A stretch of 64,000 nucleotides of DNA, taken from positions 2,046,001 through 2,110,000 of the forward strand of contig OZ287073.1 in the NCBI GenBank assembly GCA_965645245.1, in the 5' to 3' direction. Position 1 is the first letter of the stretch; each line of letters starts with the position of its first letter. Below the pieces are notes generated by a model. It was not told the origin of the DNA and searched no databases. It was given only the letters and a program-made list of their open reading frames with translations. The stretch is from Massalongia carnosa. Its lineage: Eukaryota. A program made the position numbers and the translations under genes. Below are positions 21,515-33,656 of this stretch, piece by piece.

Positions 21515-24500
21515 TCCTTGATCGAAATCGCGATCAAGGGCTTAGAAACAAGGAGGTTGTTAATGGGAACGGTGACACTGAAACGAAAATGATTAGGGTC
21601 TCTACTTGTGCTGTCCACGATACTGAAAAGAAAATCGAGGCAAGCATTTAGTTTTAAAACTAGCGTAGCTGGAATTAAAACCCGTTTACTTATCGATAAT
21701 GGAAGTGAAGCTGAACTCATTGACGAATCCTTTGTGCGTAAACACAAATTGAACACCTTCAAATTGGATAAGAAGGTGAAACTTACTTTGGGAAATGGAG
21801 AGGTAGTACAGCTCCTCTCGAAGGCCGCATTGATCGACGTGAAAATCGGAGATCACGAAGAGCAAGTCTTATGTTATTTGGCAAAACTAGAAGCGTATGC
21901 AGTCATTTTAGGGGATGGATGGCTGCAAACCCACAACCCAATGATCAATTGGAAAGAGAGAACGATGAAGTTCAACTCATCAGATTGTCTTGAAAAAGGA
22001 TGTCTTACACGAGGGATAACTTGCACCGAATTCGCTGTGGGAAGCAAGGTTAAGAATAGGATCGAGCCTAAGGAAGACATCGAAGTTCTTCCAGTCAACG
22101 CAAAACACTTCTTTCGAATGGCCAGAAAGAAGGATCACGACGGCTATCTATGGATTCCTCGAGAAACAAAGAAGGCCTTCTGCGCAACTACCACCGGAGC
22201 AGTGACATCAGGAGATTACGACAAGTTCATGAAGGGGAAACCGGAATACACCCGAGAGGAGTTGTTGGAGAGAGTCCCAGCAGCTTATCACAGCGTAATA
22301 GATGTTTTCATGAAGCACAAGGCGGATGAACTGCCTGAACACCGGAAGGAGGATCATCAGATAAATCTCGAAGCGGGAAAAGAAGCTCCGTACGTAAGGA
22401 ACTATAAACCCATGTCAGAACAAGAATTGGAAGCGGTTAAAAAATACATCGACGAGCATCTGGGAAAAGGCTTCATCCGTCCAAGTTCGTCAAGCGCAGC
22501 AGCCCCCGTTCTTTTAGTTAGAAAACCAGGGGGTGGTTTAAGATTTTGCGTAGATTATAGAGCCTTAAACTCCATCACGATCAAGAACAGGTACCCAATA
22601 CCGTTGATAAATGAAACGTTGGGAAAACTATCACAAGCCAAGAAGTTCACAAAACTGGATGTGATTACCGCTTTCAATCGTATGAGAATGAAGGAAGGCC
22701 ACGAATGGCTAACGGCTTTCAATACCAGATATGGTCAGTTCGAATATCTGGTAATGCCATTCGGTCTCTGCAACGCTCCGGGAACCTTTCAGAGCTTCAT
22801 TAACGATACAATCAGAGAATACTTAGACGTCTTCTGCACTGCGTACTTGGACGATGTCCTAATTTATAGCGAAAAGGAAGAAGAGCATTCCGAACAAGTG
22901 TTAAAAGTTCTAACTCGATTGAAGGAGAAAGGACTGCAAGTGGACATAGACAAATGCGAATTCTCTGTGACGGAAGTAAAGTATCTTGGATTAATAGTTA
23001 CCACCGATGGAATAAAGATGGACTCGGAGAAAATCGAGGCGATTCTGAAATGGGAGACCCCAGGCTCCGTAAAAGACGTGCAAGCATTTTTAGGCTTTGC
23101 GAATTTTTATCGACGATTTATATCGAGATTTTCGCAACGGACGAGATCGTTAACAGAATTAACAAAGGGCGAACAAATAACGACGAAATCAGGAAAGAAA
23201 CGAACCAAGTATAATTCGTTTGTATGGTCTGAAGATTCTCAAAAGGCCTTCGAAAATTTAAAAATTGTGTTCAATACCGCTCCCGTCTTAGCACATTACG
23301 ATCCGGCCCTGGAAACATGGATCGAGACTGACTCTTCAGATTTCGTCAGCGCCGGAGTACTCTCTCAAATGCACGATGGAGTACTGAAACCGGTAGCCTA
23401 TTTTTCCAAGAAGATGACCCCTGCCGAGTGTAACTATATGATTTATGATAAGGAATTCCTCGCTATTGTAAAGAGCTTCAAAGTCTGGCACCCCGAGGTT
23501 GCAAGTGCTGCTCCTGATAAACCTGTTAAAGTATACACCGATCACAAGAATTTAGAGCACTTCATGACCACGAAGCAGCTAAACAGAAGGCAAGCCAGAT
23601 GGGCCGAATTTCTTTCCGAATTTAATTTCAAGATTATGTATCGACCGGGAAAGCAAGGAGAGAAACCGGATACGCTTACTCGACGCTCTCAAGATATCCC
23701 GAAAGGATTCGAAGATATCAGAGAGCAACATCAGTTTCAAACGCTGCTTCAAGAGCATCAACTAGATGACGATGTACGAAAAGCGTTAGCAGTCGTGTTC
23801 TGCGCAAACACAGCGGACGACGACGACGACGACGATAACAATCAAGATAATCAAAGCGAATTCATCGAGGAAGACACAACAGGATCGGAGGAACCCAACG
23901 CAGAACCTACATCAGTGATCGACGAGACCGAGAGCTCAGTAACGAAGACTTTGGAGGAACTAATTGAAGAAGCTTACGAAAAAGACGAAACAGTTCAAGA
24001 CATAGTAGCAGCAAAGAGGAAGGAACTGAGGAAACTCCCATTGAACCTCATAAAAAGAGGAATAAAGCTAGCAATGGGGGACCTCAAACTAGAAAACGAC
24101 AAGCTGTATGTCAAAGGAAGACTATACGTACCAGATTAAGAGCCATTGCAGCTACATTTACTGAAAAAGCATCACGAACCACTATTACAGGGCCATCCGG
24201 GATACAAAAGTATGTATCAGATAATGAGAGAAAATTATTTCTGGTTTGAAATGAAGGATCACTGCAAGATATACGCAGTTAACTGCTCCGTATGCCGAAG
24301 ATCAAAAGCATACAACGACAAGAAGCAAGGCCTGCTGAATCCTCTTCCTATTCCAAATAGAAAATGGATGGACGTGTCATTGGACTTCGTCGAATTCCTT
24401 CCAGAATGCCGAAGACGAAACAGAGTCTATCAACACATATTAGTGATAGTAGATCGTTTAACGAAAAGACGATTATATGAACCACTAACCTCTCTCTCTA

Positions 24501-26904: not shown

Positions 26905-28242
26905 CAGTACTAGGTCAAAAGTTTCCGACAGCCCCACTATCAACTTTTTACCCCCCCACTGCTTTGAATTATCAACTATCAAGTTGTTATTTTGATGTCT
27001 TGAAACTTCGTACGATGATTACATACATTATAGCAAGTACATTGGGCTGAGAAATATATTTTTAATATTTCGTATACCATCCTTTTGACTGGATGCAAGC
27101 TTCAATCCTCCTTTCCATGCTGTCTACTAAACTCTTCAGCATTTCCTCATCTATCAAGGCCCATGCTTCTTCCAAAGCTTTCCAAAGTACCTCGCGGACC
27201 CTATCATCACCACCAGTCACCGAGTCGATGTCCGGATTGACCTGGTAGACGAGCTTTTTGAGCACGTACCAAACGTGCTCGATGGGATTCAAATCAGGAG
27301 AATAAGGGGGCCAATCGATGACTGTTATACCGTTTTCATCGAACCATTTCTTCACCTTTTTGGCAGTGTGAATGGGGGCATTATCCTGCATGAAAATGAG
27401 ACCTGGTTCCCAAATTCCAAGCAGATTATCGTTCAATAATTCCAAATATGAATTCGCGGAGTACCCCATCTTCTTTGCCTCGAAATCGCGGGCCAATTTG
27501 TAAAGATCCGACCTCCCCCCGCCCCAAAAAGCCCCCCATACCATGACCTTAACCTCTTTTCCTTTGCCGTACGGTTGTATCATAGGTTTTTTCCATTTTT
27601 CGTCCGGAAACCTGAACACCCATTGACGCTGTTTTCCCGACCCCTTTTCCACCGAGCACTCGTCTGACCATATTATTTTTGACCACTGCTCAAAATTCCA
27701 CTCACGCCGAAGCAAGCACCAGTCCAGTCTCTTCTTTGCCACCTCGGGCGTCAATGAAGGTTGCTTTTTAGCCAGCCAGTTTGTTAGACCATAGTCTTTG
27801 AGCGTCCGATAGAGAGTGGATCGACTACATTGCACCTCAACCTCCGTACGCAGCTGCGCGTAGGTGATGCGTGGATTGATTCGCGCAAGTTTGATGATAC
27901 GTCTTCGATCGCGGTTCGAAAGTATTCCAGGCCGACCCGATCGCGATTTGGACTTTTCGTTGTTGCGTTCTGGGTGCTTTTGAAGAGTGTAAATGACGGT
28001 GGTTCGAGGCACATTTAATGTCTTTGCAATTTCGGCCGGTGCATGCCCCAACGCCTGGGCTCCAATAATCATACCTCTTTGACATTGATTCAATTCGGTA
28101 TTACGAGGCTTATTACCAGAAATTGAAGTCAACGGAGTGCGTGGCATGGTGAAATGACGAGGTCAAAGTTGATGGGTTGGTAGGTTAAAACGCGAAATCA
28201 CGACAATCGCGGGTAGAGTCGGAAACTTTTGACACGGGACTG
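26905..28242 (-). mobile_element. Tc1/mariner DNA transposon
   Basis: TA on both sides; 25-bp imperfect TIRs CAGTACTAGGTCAAAAGTTTCCGAC / CAGTCCCGTGTCAAAAGTTTCCGAC. Confidence 0.96.
27062..28147 (-). CDS. Tc1-family DD34E transposase, intact
   Basis: HTH with RSGRP, IIWSDE, VMVWGAF, FMQDNAPIH, WPPYSPDLNPIEHVW; 34 residues between the second D and E. Confidence 0.97.
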   Translation of the reverse strand: MPRTPLTSISGNKPRNTELNQCQRGMIIGAQALGHAPAEIAKTLNVPRTTVIYTLQKHPERNNEKSKSRSGRPGILSNRDRRRIIKLARINPRITYAQLRTEVEVQCSRSTLYRTLKDYGLTNWLAKKQPSLTPEVAKKRLDWCLLRREWNFEQWSKIIWSDECSVEKGSGKQRQWVFRFPDEKWKKPMIQPYGKGKEVKVMVWGAFWGGGRSDLYKLARDFEAKKMGYSANSYLELLNDNLLGIWEPGLIFMQDNAPIHTAKKVKKWFDENGITVIDWPPYSPDLNPIEHVWYVLKKLVYQVNPDIDSVTGGDDRVREVLWKALEEAWALIDEEMLKSLVDSMERRIEACIQSKGWYTKY

Positions 28243-28406
28243 TAGGGAGAAAGGGAGAAAGAGCACAATTGTATTTACGCTACGGCACACAAATGGAATA
28301 TAGATGAGATGGTTCTATGTCACGTGAGGCCCCTGAGTCAAAGTAAATTAAGAATCACCCTCTGAAAATTCTTTCCTCATCCACTTCTTCTCACTCGGCC
28401 TCATCC

Positions 28407-28529
28407 ATCTCACTGACTCGTCGTCGACCCCACGTTCTCTCGGTGCCCCTACCTCGCTGTCAGTGCTTGCTGCTTTTCCAATCTCACTGACTCGTCGTCG
28501 ACCTCACGTTGTCTCGGTGCCCCTACCTC
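28407..28529 (+). repeat. ~48-bp direct duplication in the YR element leader
   Basis: ATCTCACTGACTCGTCGTCGACC(C/T)CACGTT(C/G)TCTCGGTGCCCCTACCTC at ~28407 and ~28482. Confidence 0.85.
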
Positions 28530-28532
28530 CCA

Positions 28533-29546
28533 ATGACGAACACCCGTTCCCAAAGCACCTTGATGGACGACATAGTCCCCGACCCCCAGGAGATTGTCGG
28601 ATTGACGCAGGCCCAATCCAATCAAATCTTCGCCCTACAAAAGAAGAAAGCCGAGGCGGAAGCGAAGGCGGCCGAGGCTGAGGCCAGAATTGCCGAGTCC
28701 AAGGCATTGGTCGCCGAGAAGGAGGTGGAAAAAATGCAGCTAGAAATCGACTGCATGCGCCGAGAATCTGACGCCCGAATAGCGGCCGTCATTCCTGCTG
28801 GCAAGCCGAGTCGTGTCGTCGGCGATGACGACGAGGACCTAGGTGAGATCCCTCTCGAAGTAAGAAGCATAGCACCCCGTTTCGCGGGCCTACCACAGGA
28901 CCAGATCATCAAGATCTTTTCAAATAAATTCAAAGCCATCAACCTCTCCCGCCTCCGACACATGCGCGGCATGCAATACGAGTCATACAAGGATCAAGAC
29001 CGCATCGGCATCGAAGACGGCGCCTTGAGGTTGAGAAAGGCATCCGGGACCTACAAAGATTTCGGAAAGACAGTTCATGACGTCTGGACCGAGAGCTTCA
29101 TCAACTACACCTCGATCATGGTCAGTCTTTTCGGGAAATCGAGTCAACAGCTTCACGCCACCATGTCGGCATTCCACGGAAAAATCCTCACGCTGGCCAA
29201 GGTGTACGAGTGGCAGGAAGCAGTCCTCCCCCTCGCCATCGAAACCCACACCCACGTCATCGCGTCTCAGCCATCCGACGCATCCCAATGGAAAATGCCC
29301 GACGAATTCCAAGCTCGATTCTGCACCCCCCTCACAGTCCTACGCCGTCGCCGCTCACGATCCCCGCCGTCCCGACGACCGACCCCGAGAGGAGACAGGG
29401 CCGAGAGGGCCGAGAAGGCAGCGGGGGAAATCTGCGACAAGTACAACAGCGGCACCTGCACCTGGCCGTCGTGCTACCGACAGCACAAATGCAAATCGTG
29501 CGGCGCGGCTGGGCATGGCCAGAAGACATGCCCAACGAAGAAATAG
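28533..29546 (+). CDS. gag: YR retrotransposon Gag-like ORF1 (coiled coil, C-terminal CCCH plus CCHC zinc fingers)
   Basis: First ATG at 28533; AEAEAKAAEAEAR coiled coil; CDKYNSGTCTWPSCYRQH-KCKSCGAAGHGQKTC. Confidence 0.88.
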   Translation: MTNTRSQSTLMDDIVPDPQEIVGLTQAQSNQIFALQKKKAEAEAKAAEAEARIAESKALVAEKEVEKMQLEIDCMRRESDARIAAVIPAGKPSRVVGDDDEDLGEIPLEVRSIAPRFAGLPQDQIIKIFSNKFKAINLSRLRHMRGMQYESYKDQDRIGIEDGALRLRKASGTYKDFGKTVHDVWTESFINYTSIMVSLFGKSSQQLHATMSAFHGKILTLAKVYEWQEAVLPLAIETHTHVIASQPSDASQWKMPDEFQARFCTPLTVLRRRRSRSPPSRRPTPRGDRAERAEKAAGEICDKYNSGTCTWPSCYRQHKCKSCGAAGHGQKTCPTKK

Positions 29547-29591
29547 GGGGTTGGTGTAGGAGGCAGTAGAATAGCTTCAATAGCTGAATTC

Positions 29592-31295
29592 ATGACGTTC
29601 CATCCCTGCTTACCTACACCAATCAGACCAAATACAATCCCTTCGTTTCAACTCGTAGACGCATCTCGTCAGCGTTTGAAAGACAGCCCATCTCCCCTCG
29701 TAACGTCCGCATGGGCAACCCTACTTCAAGAGTATCCGGGCCCCCTCCGAGTCCATCTGCCCATGATCCTTCGTTTCGGAGTACAAATCGGATACGAAGG
29801 CCCCACAGACATCCTTCGGATCGAAAAAAATCTGACATCAGCGAATGAGGACCCGGAAACGATCGAGAATAAGCTTCAAGAGGACCTCAGGAAGGGCCGA
29901 GTCAGACGAATAGCCGCCCCGAGTCAGCCATTTGTGGCCTCCCTCCTCGGCTTGGTCCCGAAACATGACGGAGGATGGCGACGCATTCATCATCTGTCTC
30001 ATCCCAATCAAACATCAGTCAACGACAACATTCCAGAAGAGGCATCCAAATTACAATACGCCAGACTCGACGACATTATTCAATTGATTCTGTCAGAGGG
30101 CAAAGGTGCTGTCATAGTGAAAAGAGACGTCAAAGACGCCTTTCGAAACGTTCCCGTCGCACCTCATCATCAATGGCTTCTGGGTTTCGGATGGAATGAC
30201 GAATTCTACACCGAGACATGCCTTTCGTTCGGACTGTCGATGGCCCCGTTCATCTTCAATCTTTTTGCGGAAGGCTTTCATTGGATTTTGGAATCCTTTC
30301 TACAATGGAGATTACATCACTATCTAGACGACTTCGTTGCAATTTTCCCATCCGAGACATCGTCAGAACGATTGCACCAAGAAACAAAAGCCTACAACAT
30401 TCTCACCGACATTCTCGGCATCCCGAGAAACGACTCAAAAGACGCCGAGGGAACGACAGCGACAGTCTTCGGACTCGAGGTCGACACCATCAACAGTCTT
30501 ATTCGTCTGCCAGCGGACAAGCTGGAAAAAGCGAGAATCATCACTACAAAGGCACTAAACGAGACGACAATCAGCCTCGGCGACATGCAGTCAATAGCGG
30601 GCTTCCTAAGCTTCTGCGCACAGGCAGTCAAATTGGGCCGAGTCTTCTTACGATTATTCTGGAATTTTATAGCCTCATTTCCCTCGGGCAGTCATCGTCG
30701 GGTCAAAAGAAGAATTCCCACATGGGTCAGACAGGATCTCATCTGGTGGAACAAACTTTTAGTGGACTTCAACGGTATTGTCTTCTTCGAGACGTCAACA
30801 CGAGACACGATCAAGGTGCATACGGATGCATGCCTCACGGGTCTCGGAGGCTATTTTCAACAAGACAACGAGCTCGTGAATCAAAAAAACGCATGTAGGG
30901 CCCCAGTCCTAGTCCTCAATCAGGAAGAATCACCGACCATAAACGTCCGAGAAGTCGAGGCTATCCTTCTAATCCTTCAGAAATGGGCGCCGACATGGCG
31001 ACATCGACAGATCCTTGTCTTTACCGACAGCAACACAGCATACACAGGATTCACGAATCTAACCCTCAAGGGACCGGCCAACGCGCCTCTACGAGAAATA
31101 CTGTCCATAGCTGCAAAGTGGGACATCGTACTACGTTGTCAATGGATCAGTGGCACTTCCAATGGACTAGCAGATGCCCTGTCACGTTTTGATAATGAAA
31201 GATTAGCTAACTTTTGCCCTCATTGGCAGAACCCATACAATTTGATGAACCTCCCTCCACCTACCTATCCTCCACACCAGGGTCAGCCCTGGTAA
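29592..31295 (+). CDS. pol: YR retrotransposon reverse transcriptase / RNase H
   Basis: LGLVPKHDGGWRRIHHLS, KRDVKDAFRNVP, LSFGLSMAPFIF, HYLDDF, HTDACLTGLGG, INVREVEA, FTDS, NGLADALSR. Confidence 0.95.
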   Translation: MTFHPCLPTPIRPNTIPSFQLVDASRQRLKDSPSPLVTSAWATLLQEYPGPLRVHLPMILRFGVQIGYEGPTDILRIEKNLTSANEDPETIENKLQEDLRKGRVRRIAAPSQPFVASLLGLVPKHDGGWRRIHHLSHPNQTSVNDNIPEEASKLQYARLDDIIQLILSEGKGAVIVKRDVKDAFRNVPVAPHHQWLLGFGWNDEFYTETCLSFGLSMAPFIFNLFAEGFHWILESFLQWRLHHYLDDFVAIFPSETSSERLHQETKAYNILTDILGIPRNDSKDAEGTTATVFGLEVDTINSLIRLPADKLEKARIITTKALNETTISLGDMQSIAGFLSFCAQAVKLGRVFLRLFWNFIASFPSGSHRRVKRRIPTWVRQDLIWWNKLLVDFNGIVFFETSTRDTIKVHTDACLTGLGGYFQQDNELVNQKNACRAPVLVLNQEESPTINVREVEAILLILQKWAPTWRHRQILVFTDSNTAYTGFTNLTLKGPANAPLREILSIAAKWDIVLRCQWISGTSNGLADALSRFDNERLANFCPHWQNPYNLMNLPPPTYPPHQGQPW

Positions 31296-32377
31296 AACGC
31301 CTCGTCTGGCACGGACACTCGGCGGACACGAGAAAAGGGTACGGGACGGCGATCGACTCATACGAGGCAATCTGCGCGACGACGGGACGCACGTCGTGGC
31401 CTGCAACAACCGAGTCCCTCGAGGAATGGCTAGCCGGTCGACTATACGGGGGCGGCACACCCAAGCAGGGAAAGATAAAACCAGAGACGGCAGCGAGCTA
31501 CCTCGCCGGCCTCAGATCATACCATGTAGACCGAGGATACGGCCTCACCCCATTCGAGGGGCCGAGACTTCAATTGATGCTGAAAGGGGGAAAAAGGATC
31601 TTTTCTCAGACAAAAAGAAGACGCCTACCCATTTCAAAAAAATTACTGACAAAAATCACCAGTATTCCCGCTCATTCGGCCGAAGACCTCAACATCGACG
31701 CGACATTTAAAGTTGCATGGGCAGGGTTCCTCAGACTCGGGGAAATCACCTACACTGTCGCCGATCGTAAGAAGACATCTTTTCAGAGATTGAAACCTAC
31801 ACGATGTGACATCTCATTCGCCGAGAACGATCAATACGCGACATTACGTCTCAAAAGAAGCAAAACAGACACAAATCACACAGGAGTTCAGATAGTGCTT
31901 GCAGCGACCAATGAGAGCACTTGCCCCGTGACAGCACTACGGCGTCTTTTCAGAAATGATCCTCAGCCATCTACATCCCCGCTTTTTTGTCTCGGCACCG
32001 CATTCACCAGAGCCTCCGTCATAGCATCCCTGAAAAAGAGACTGATAGCCGCCGGCATCAACGACTCGGCATACTCGGGACACAGCTTCAGAAAAGGAGC
32101 AGCACAACACGCCGCCGACCACGGGATGCTGGATGAGAGTATTCAGAGACTCGGAAGATGGTCATCAAACGCGTTTCAGCTATACTTTCAGACGTCCCAG
32201 GCCTCACTATTCAATTTGAACCTCAGTTTTCAAAAAGGCATCCCTCTGGCAGTCCCACGTGCTGTCGTCGCCGAGACGAATCCTACAAACTCCTACCCCT
32301 ACTCAATTGGGCATTCCATTGGGCGTACAGGTCAACCAGGGCATCGATCCGGAGCGCCGCCGGGCACCTCCATCTAG
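31214..32377 (+). CDS. Tyrosine recombinase of the YR retrotransposon (no ATG at the 5' end)
   Basis: Catalytic set intact: FLRLGE (R), KRSKTD (K), GHSFRKGAA (HxxR), LGRWSS (W), FQLY (Y); CPVTAL motif. Confidence 0.94.
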   Translation: MPSLAEPIQFDEPPSTYLSSTPGSALVKRLVWHGHSADTRKGYGTAIDSYEAICATTGRTSWPATTESLEEWLAGRLYGGGTPKQGKIKPETAASYLAGLRSYHVDRGYGLTPFEGPRLQLMLKGGKRIFSQTKRRRLPISKKLLTKITSIPAHSAEDLNIDATFKVAWAGFLRLGEITYTVADRKKTSFQRLKPTRCDISFAENDQYATLRLKRSKTDTNHTGVQIVLAATNESTCPVTALRRLFRNDPQPSTSPLFCLGTAFTRASVIASLKKRLIAAGINDSAYSGHSFRKGAAQHAADHGMLDESIQRLGRWSSNAFQLYFQTSQASLFNLNLSFQKGIPLAVPRAVVAETNPTNSYPYSIGHSIGRTGQPGHRSGAPPGTSI

Positions 32378-33656
32378 ATCATCGCCATCGGGCACTGCCG
32401 TCGGGCATTATCTATCGGATCGTTGAGCGTCAGCAGACGCCTCGGGCCTAGAAGATGAGGTTCTCACCTCAGCACCGACCCCGAGTCACGTGCCTAGGCC
32501 TGCCCGGGCTGACCTGTGTCGTTCCCATGCCCAATCAAATTCAAGCATTCAAATCAATTCATCCAATTAAAAGCCCCCCCCAGCGCAAGCGAAGGTAACG
32601 GCACCGATAAGGGTCATAGAAAGCCAGAAAAATGTGTATATATTGACGAGTACAAAGATTCATACACGGAGTAAGAGCCTCACTATTGACTCCACATATA
32701 TTTTTGGTGTAACAATTACACGGCGGATAACGGCCAGAATGATGGACGAGGTGCGGAAAATACGCTCAACAGAGCAGGTTTGTCACTGGAATACTAGTTC
32801 TAAAGTCAGAGAAGTCAGATCTGTTCCCTAATCTATTTGCTATTCGTTCCTGAATAGCTCTTCCAGGGGCGTATCTTCAGTGGCTTGCACTATATGCTGG
32901 GTTTTGACATGGCCTCATTCATAGCCGTCGATGCAATGCCGTCTATTGGAGTCGCCCGTCGCCCGTCGCCCATCTCGTTTAGAGCATCTGATCGAAGTAA
33001 TTAGCGAATACGCATTTGCCGCTGACAGGGCTGAGCATATAATAGCTGGCCGCTGTTGCGATGTGGTGGCTAGTGACTTTAAATCTTATTATAAGTTCTT
33101 CTCTTTCGATCTTTATGGCTCCGTGGCGGAACATTCCCGCTCTGAACCCGCCTCGAGAGGTTCTCGGGTGGTTCTGTGCGAATGTATCGTCGCGCCGCGG
33201 TTCGATTCCCCGGAAGAACGTTCTTTTTTTATTGATAGTAAACATTATTACGGTTCATCTGAATATCTCTTTGTTTGAAATCTAGGCTTCAAGGCTTGAT
33301 CTATATAGCACTTTTTTAGACGACGAAAAGCGAGTTTTGATCAGCCTTTGCGCAGGATATCTCCAACCTCCATTTATGTGCTGTATGCTTCCTTTTCATG
33401 TGCGAGTCATGACAACGCTGACCATTTTCAACTCTTCCTTAGTGCCACGATTCTCGCCTCGAGTCTTTCTGTCGTTTCCCTATAATGGGCCTCTGCCATG
33501 AAGTCTGTCTCGTTCACCTCCTTAGCCATACTGTCCGCAATACCTCAAATTCGACAGTCTGATTGTGGGAAGGTTCGATGATCTTATATGCCCGTTCGAG
33601 TTCCAGGCGCAACGAGATTGGGTTTTTTACGGTTTTTCCGTACTCCTTTACTTTTA

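Follow-up and report, generated by a model that had tools for sequence, protein, structure and literature searches.

How is the recombinase of a retrotransposon translated when its reading frame has no start codon? The question is raised by a locus in a 64,000-nucleotide stretch of DNA from Massalongia carnosa (contig OZ287073.1 of assembly GCA_965645245.1, positions 2,046,001 to 2,110,000 of the forward strand). This whole stretch is called the window below, and all coordinates are counted from its first letter. The window holds one copy of a retrotransposon with genes for Gag, a reverse transcriptase joined to RNase H (RT/RH), and a tyrosine recombinase (YR). We propose, with a probability of about 0.78, that this is an intact, recently mobile, Ngaro-like YR retrotransposon in which one transcript would yield Gag, a Gag-RT/RH protein and, after splicing, a 485-aa protein (GagN-YR) in which the N-terminal part of Gag is fused to the recombinase. 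The proposal depends on the following features.

28299..32614, + strand: whole retrotransposon (4316 bp) with gag, RT/RNase H and YR; no long terminal repeats found
28533..29546, + strand: gag open reading frame (ORF), 337 aa and a TAG stop; from the ORF list and an alignment (A2) with 12 homologs
28533..28842, + strand: coding part of the proposed exon 1, Gag 1-103 and the first base of codon 104
28843..28848, + strand: proposed 5' splice site GTGAGA (TAG/GTGAGA), phase 1; homolog conservation
28843..31229, + strand: proposed intron of 2387 nt, holding the gag core and RT/RNase H
29544..29546, + strand: TAG stop of gag, probable readthrough site, in frame with RT/RH
29547..31295, + strand: RT/RNase H ORF, 582 codons, in the gag frame
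31206..31211, + strand: putative branch-point motif GCTAAC, which includes the TAA stop at the opening of the YR frame
31227..31229, + strand: proposed 3' splice site CAG; TGG CAG is invariant in 19/19 lineages
31230..32377, + strand: proposed exon 2, tyrosine recombinase to its TAG stop; 331 homologs at E<=1e-3

A recombinase frame without a start codon

The open YR frame spans 31211-32377 and lies -1 relative to the RT/RH frame. The original prediction, which was made by a model that saw only the DNA and its ORFs, held that YR opens at 31211 in the -1 frame of RT, lacks an ATG for more than 100 codons and overlaps RT without a canonical slippery heptamer (X_XXY_YYZ). The coordinates were confirmed, the first methionine is residue 123 (nt 31577), and no such heptamer was seen by eye in the overlap (31211-31295), so that a canonical -1 frameshift into YR was rejected as a candidate. 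Six residues of the product (R198, K218, H291 and R294 of an H-x-x-R motif, W317 and Y325) are invariant in an alignment of 24 sequences (A1), and we take these to be the catalytic residues. The match of YR to the Pfam family Phage_integrase is weak (1.1e-3, 19.2 bits, under the cut-off of 27.1).

A second candidate, that homologs begin YR at a conserved methionine (the column of window codon 31214), was also rejected. The DNA shows that most of these starts are GTG or TTG codons called as starts, and an ATG near the opening of the frame occurs in 5 of 20 lineages only. The second YR codon is NTG because a cysteine codon (TGY) in the RT frame forces the TG, and the ATG, where present, is a by-product of isoleucine or leucine and cysteine codons in that frame. 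Some relatives have RT/RNase H and YR in a single ORF (P0262 and P0174, and likewise P0181 and P0198 with 1222-1252 aa), and two other YR relatives (P0245 and P0197) have different N-terminal extensions.

According to our proposal, unspliced RNA would be translated into Gag, and readthrough of the single in-frame TAG would extend Gag into Gag-RT/RH. In a minority of transcripts, the spliceosome would cut at 28842/GTGAGA, branch at GCTAAC and join to 31230, behind CAG, generating a subgenomic RNA for the 485-aa fusion. The excised 2387 nt would comprise the Gag core and all of RT/RH; of Gag, its start codon, long N-terminal helix and linker would be left in the fusion, ahead of the complete recombinase. 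The YR frame would need no ATG because the fusion would supply the start codon of Gag. The helix shared with Gag would probably let the recombinase travel with Gag assemblies, and we suspect that the fusion is the active form of the recombinase.

Conservation of the proposed acceptor site

The motif GCTAAC (31206-31211) and the CAG (31227-31229) are located where the original prediction placed them. The prediction also called the acceptor well supported, and here the outcome was divided. As a motif in the window, the acceptor is within chance: CTAAC-N8-25-YAG occurs 28 times in the window versus 36.6 +/- 6.0 times in shuffles. Comparison with homologs, on the other hand, favors a genuine site, and the finding rises above chance because of this conservation and the intronless copies described below, not because of the window sequence alone.

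For the comparison at the DNA level, 80 related metagenome loci were taken, with L060-L078 and L080 left out, and lineage representatives were set at <80% nucleotide identity. Loci whose YR match begins past residue ~30, or that have N-terminal stops, were omitted from the acceptor table (L019, L020, L022, L023, L025, L027, L033, L035-L037, L045, L046, L051, L054, L059 and L079). Right before the start of YR conservation, and in the same phase, CTRAY..YAG is present in 20 of 20 homolog lineages. The original prediction had asked for exactly this comparison and had named homologs that lack the acceptor and start YR at an ATG as evidence to the contrary. All 20 lineages kept the acceptor, in phase, and the ATG was limited to the five mentioned above.

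The loci fall into three clades that arrange this region differently. In clade 1, the YR frame opens inside xCTRAY-N13/14-TGGCAG in all 30 loci, and three parts of this motif do not vary among the 19 lineage representatives: the T in xCT, the A in RAY, and TGG CAG. The third base of xCT and that of CAG are fixed, whereas neighboring third positions of the RT frame show two to four states; in pooled codon use, GCT makes up 0.23 of alanine codons and CAG 0.46 of glutamine codons. Changes of residue (Ala/Thr/Ser and Asn/Asp) leave CTRAY intact, with GCT, ACT or TCT at the first codon and AAC, AAT or GAC at the second, and in L053, which has TVK in place of CPH, the motif and TGGCAG are still intact. 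In clade 2 (five loci) and clade 3 (L006 and L011), the site lies in a non-coding spacer after the RT stop, where it reads CTAAC-N8-15-YAG and has the same phase. Since RT and YR do not overlap in clades 2 and 3, frameshifting is no option there. We conclude that a constraint acting apparently at the RNA level is visible in the acceptor motif.

Conservation of protein sequence changes at the same point. In the homolog alignment, it switches from the RT frame to the YR frame at the CAG. The RT/RH motif ADALSR is kept in homologs, the conserved C-terminal peptide of RT (ADALSRFD..IANxCPHWQ) stops at the CAG at 31229, and the RT tail beyond it is 0-215 aa long and unrelated among homologs.

Conservation of the proposed donor site

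The original prediction offered the donor in gag as its best candidate only. This site has gained considerably from the comparison, being conserved as /GT in phase 1 at the homologous gag column in all 22 sequences examined, from 10 lineages. A strong phase-1 donor (x/GTGAG or GTAAG) is present in 15 of 16 gag-bearing sequences, the 16th (L014) has CAG/GTACGC at the same place, and six further loci have GGTRAG there in frame; L047 and L048, which are frame-broken upstream, were left out of the count. GTRAG occurs four times in the element. The predicted phase and product were also confirmed: the last exon base at 28842/28843 is the first base of codon 104, and joining it to 31230 would make the codon G+AA (Glu), remove an intron of 2387 nt and give an open frame of 485 aa. 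Among the homologs with gag, the junction codon is never a stop.

The position of the donor within gag is not arbitrary. It marks the border between an N-terminal coiled-coil and acidic part that cannot be aligned and a conserved core, and the invariant columns of the gag alignment begin with G104. The codon for G104 is GGT in all seven aligned lineage representatives (GGT has a share of 0.167 of glycine codons), and the codon varies at 11 of the 12 other invariant degenerate gag residues. The splice consensus survives changes of residue: AGT GAG where Gly becomes Ser, GGT AAG where Glu becomes Lys, and GGT ACG where Glu becomes Thr.

Gag consists of a long N-terminal helix, a linker, a folded core and a C-terminal zinc knuckle. 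An AlphaFold2 model (mean pLDDT 75) has the helix at residues 26-86, a disordered stretch at 87-102 and the core from 108. The window donor falls at the border of linker and core, and with these model borders the proposed exon 1 carries exactly the helix and the linker. The Gag product matched no Pfam family at E<=0.01. Modeling supports a possible self-association of Gag 1-103, in that three copies modeled together scored 0.32, compared to 0.02 for the best control, and the runs had at least 53% of contacts in agreement and a partner pLDDT of at least 59. The mark of 0.32 is reached by 21 of 30 proteins solved as one-chain pairs and 0 of 23 solved as single chains, and in eukaryotic sets by 17 of 29 pairs and 0 of 30 single chains, counts that apply only roughly to three copies.

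Intronless joins in related families

If spliced RNAs were made and occasionally reverse transcribed, they could leave copies in which gag and YR are joined without the intron. P0167 has this structure. Its residues 1-62 match residues 73-134 of the gag protein P0306 (86% identity) up to ..DEDDE-G, and its residues 62-319 match residues 6-274 of a genomic YR ORF, P0081 (90% identity). The glycine common to both matches is the predicted junction codon. Both P0306 and P0081 belong to the same family as P0167, and the source of P0306 is named as Elaphomyces granulatus. The P0167 contig has a length of 2222 nt, with no room for both 972 nt of coding sequence and an intron of ~2.4 kb; the join is therefore present in the nucleic acid itself. 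Indels relative to P0081 suggest that P0167 is a genomic retro-copy of a spliced RNA, now in decay. In P0234, a coiled coil that ends in ..EDDL is followed by one residue and then by the start of YR, and the protein is probably an exact intronless GagN-YR join like that of P0167. In P0021, the same point in gag is joined to an in-phase site further downstream in YR.

A different joint was found in the family of the window element. Four public runs were compared, all consisting of contigs of unrecorded kind. One contig of run X3 has a joint 30894->31230 that has GT..AG ends, skips 335 nt and ends at the predicted acceptor (side 29; what lies between is recorded as "not known"). The corresponding donor is the following.

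30895..30900, + strand: alternative donor GTAGGG, probably cryptic; weak, in RNase H, from the X3 joint

The joint removes most of RNase H. Its depth of 1962.5 is near that of single-copy flank contigs (1767 and 1794) and fits one genomic copy, although depth is unsafe as a measure of copy number in a run whose kind is unrecorded. We think that the X3 joint is probably a retro-copied, mis-spliced RNA. As a separate observation, the YR frame is open within the RT gene at 30200-30898 and 30899-31192 (+), with 232 and 97 codons, and the sole break between these stretches is a TAG at 30896-30898, inside GTAGGG.

Taken together, the comparisons demonstrate that both predicted splice sites and their phase are conserved and that copies lacking the intron exist in related families. 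Splicing of the window copy in vivo would be the extension of this pattern to M. carnosa. Several observations weigh against it. P0167 has indels relative to P0081 and so appears to be a decaying DNA copy rather than an mRNA, and the joins in P0167, P0234 and P0021 are known at the protein level only. A search with Gag 1-103 of the window family found two proteins (P0121 and P0122), both gag-like, and no fusion. The joint 28842->31230, for which the original prediction recommended looking, was not among the 15 listed of the 38 joints in the public runs. The X3 joint uses a different donor and would create a stop in the RT frame (T+AA), and thus looks like a defective by-product. In clade 1, the acceptor also encodes the conserved peptide IANxCPHWQ, so that part of its conservation is at the protein level, and the lineages are related by a tree, so that products of codon frequencies overstate significance. 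Lastly, at 2.4 kb the intron would far exceed the length usual in fungi.

Other possible ways to make the recombinase

The foremost alternative is that YR is translated from unspliced RNA, by a non-AUG start (TTG at 31214; GTG in most homologs), by an unusual -1 shift or by reinitiation. The conserved motifs would then reflect constraint on the RT and Gag proteins, and the intronless copies would be chance deletions. There are reasons to consider this. NTG is the second YR codon in most clade-1 lineages, with ATG in 5 of 20, the acceptor motif coincides in part with the codons of the conserved RT peptide CPHWQ, and other deletion derivatives do exist, such as L028, in which RT residue 315 abuts YR residue 30. 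The available portions of the overviews of such elements likewise mention only frameshifted or overlapping YR ORFs (PMC3783388, PMC3266345). However, TGY, the Cys codon of the RT frame, dictates the NTG, whose first base follows the preceding RT codon, and clades 2 and 3 have neither the overlap nor the NTG, yet have CTAAC..YAG in phase. Constraint on protein sequence would not account for synonymous positions (xCT, CAG and GGT) that are fixed while other synonymous sites vary, nor for GTRAG and CTRAY motifs that are preserved through changes of residue, and a chance deletion would not be expected to place the junction of P0167 exactly on the donor and acceptor. The overlap has no slippery heptamer, and internal initiation ~2.7 kb into the mRNA would presumably need a device resembling an internal ribosome entry site. 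We therefore consider translation from unspliced RNA unlikely, at odds of roughly one in ten.

It is also conceivable, though a shade less probable again, that splicing occurs but is imposed by the host or accidental. Cryptic sites would then give rise to dead-end RNAs and defective retro-copies, and YR would be made in some other way. In keeping with this, the donor of the only splice-like joint seen in the window family (30894->31230), GTAGGG, is weak and the joint would introduce a stop; in P0021, YR is entered at another acceptor further downstream; and P0167 is decaying. But cryptic sites would not hold their position and phase over 10 to 20 lineages in which gag is only 23-30% identical, nor would they reappear in the non-coding spacers of other clades. 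The fixed synonymous positions, the residue changes that keep the consensus and the exact junction of P0167 speak against this reading as well. The simplest explanation for the conservation of the splice sites would be selection on the element itself.

That the copy is a dead relic whose signals no longer matter is the least probable of these explanations, at only a few chances in a hundred: although dozens of positions in the window copy deviate from the consensus of the other copies, all three of its ORFs are intact, a joint 28298->32615 corresponding to the empty form of the same insertion site is present in contigs of runs X1 and X3, and cluster P0001 has 54 member sequences at 90% identity or more. 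Because the empty-site form occurs in two runs, the insertion is polymorphic and the family recently mobile.

Returning to splicing as the preferred explanation, we ask how far it extends. We postulate that the whole fungal Ngaro-like clade to which the element belongs, with at least 20 lineages and named relatives from Ascomycota and Basidiomycota, makes its integrase only as a spliced GagN-YR through a conserved intron of ~2.4 kb. We hold this broader claim with appreciably less assurance than that for the window element, and rate it only somewhat above even.

The gag stop and the reverse transcriptase

Stop-codon readthrough between gag and pol is known from elements of the murine leukemia virus type, and a stop followed by CAA is a known leaky context, as in the CAA-YYA of tobacco mosaic virus. 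The original prediction assumed that Gag-RT is made in this way, and this part of it was only partly supported. In 9 of 13 elements gag and RT/RH share a frame and only one stop separates them, as in the murine leukemia virus type, and CAA follows the gag stop in 7 of 13. Unlike the tobacco mosaic virus context, the stop of the window copy reads TAG GGG GTT; an in-frame ATG is found 15 codons later. The RT ORF matches the Pfam families RVT_1 (1.1e-12, 48.5 bits; cut-off 29.6) and RT_RNaseH (3.1e-4, 21.3 bits, under the cut-off of 24.8).

Relation to known elements

Ngaro retrotransposons, of the DIRS order, were reportedly described from fungi and animals by Goodwin and Poulter in 2004. The window element resembles them in having the order gag, RT/RNase H, YR and in lacking a methyltransferase, a protease and a DDE integrase: no Pfam family for any of the three was found at E<=0.01 in the gag, RT and YR products. 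It has what defines a YR retrotransposon of the DIRS order (RT and RNase H, a YR with catalytic residues, and no aspartic protease or DDE integrase), and its gene order without a methyltransferase is that by which Ngaro elements are recognized in the available part of PMC3266345. The homologs are from fungi (sources name Elaphomyces granulatus and Collybiopsis confluens), and a YR frame shifted relative to RT is also found in fungal Ngaro elements, as described in the portion of PMC3783388 available.

The ends of the element are less typical. Unlike Ngaro elements, it has no split direct or terminal repeats above shuffles. Ngaro-type split direct repeats (A1 ... B1 A2 B2) were not found in the element, no direct repeat of at least 20 nt links the element ends, and the best local alignment of 5' leader and 3' tail scored 17, versus 16.8 +/- 2.2 in 200 shuffles. 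For this reason the name Ngaro-like is used here on the basis of gene content, and the element is not assigned to Ngaro itself. Inverted terminal repeats were not found either, and only two weak internal inverted pairs were detected in the element.

Some parallels extend to DIRS-1 of Dictyostelium and DIRS1-like elements. As far as the available parts of PMC7192593 and PMC3266345 go, these elements also integrate by YR without the usual target duplication and have overlapping or frame-shifted ORFs whose route of translation is left unexplained. DIRS-1 similarly has a short sequence common to its ends and its target, a 3-bp circular junction there and ATAGA here. In contrast, DIRS1-like elements have inverted terminal repeats, internal complementary regions and a methyltransferase, with YR placed before pol (PMC3266345, in part), and none of these features is seen in the window element.

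The conserved GagN-YR splice strategy appears to be undescribed, although the element itself is ordinary. The literature searched, a body of text that did not cover the founding Ngaro paper and later reviews, yielded no report that DIRS or Ngaro elements are spliced naturally; the passages behind this negative are from PMC7192593, PMC3783388, PMC6681497, PMC4157794, PMC8547959 and PMC3266345. In the available parts of PMC3783388 and PMC3266345, "intron" and "splic" are not mentioned. In these same parts, the overviews of the DIRS order leave the translation of YR open and only term its ORF frameshifted or overlapping.

Subgenomic splicing as such is familiar from other elements and has several precedents. 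Those that make spliced subgenomic mRNAs include retroviruses (env), foamy viruses (pol) and copia of Drosophila (gag). In retroviruses and elements with long terminal repeats (LTRs), one transcript is both genome and mRNA, the 5' donor is suboptimal, and most of the RNA remains unspliced. The proposed route resembles theirs in that a donor close to the 5' end is paired with an acceptor ahead of a downstream gene to give a second product. It differs in that the product would be an in-frame fusion of the Gag helix to YR, the element falls outside the LTR elements, and its acceptor lies within the last codons of RT/RH.

If the proposal is correct, it would be the first description of splicing-based expression in YR retrotransposons and would bring retrovirus-like subgenomic splicing outside the LTR elements. 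It would also answer, for one fungal clade in which it can be tested, how recombinase ORFs without a start are translated. A recombinase tagged with Gag is a possible packaging mechanism, as the recombinase would be held to Gag particles and cDNA by the helix that it shares with Gag. Reverse transcription of spliced RNAs would seed short, non-autonomous gagN-YR copies, and thus could explain the short genomic copies of this kind. For annotation, the rule would be to join /GTRAG at gag codon ~100-200 to CTAAC..YAG/ before YR, in fungal genomes where such YR ORFs are now called with spurious GTG or TTG starts.

Extent of the element and its surroundings

The extent of the element agrees with public contigs, in which the alignment of other copies spans 28300 to about 32620. 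The sequence ATAGA is present at both ends (28300-28304 and 32616-32620), and these 5 nt could be either a short duplication or a crossover core that the circular form of the element has in common with its target. In two related loci (L024 and L029), RT-YR is followed ~0.6-0.95 kb on by the gag-RT of a second unit on the same strand, a layout that could be either head-to-tail copies or a circularly permuted assembly.

The 5' leader has one further feature.

28407..28529, + strand: two 49-nt direct repeats in the 5' leader (28407-28455 and 28481-28529), 96% identical

The leader varies among copies in the number of repeats or through insertions: a joint leads from 28475 to 28548, and 17 nt are inserted after 28527. 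Where it differs from other copies, the window copy most often carries T against their C (16-18 places, X1 and X3) and, next most often, A against their G (9-11 places).

Transposons are abundant in the window. Directly upstream of the element is the ORF of a Tc1/mariner-type transposase at 27062-28162 on the minus strand (DDE_3, 3.9e-17; HTH_Tnp_Tc3_2, 3.4e-15). In the public runs this repeat occurs in multiple copies, whose sequences part from that of the window at 28244, indicating that the repeat ends nearby. Two more distant RT-like stretches, at 22274-23107 (+) and 46760-46068 (-), are 24-26% identical to the RT of the element.

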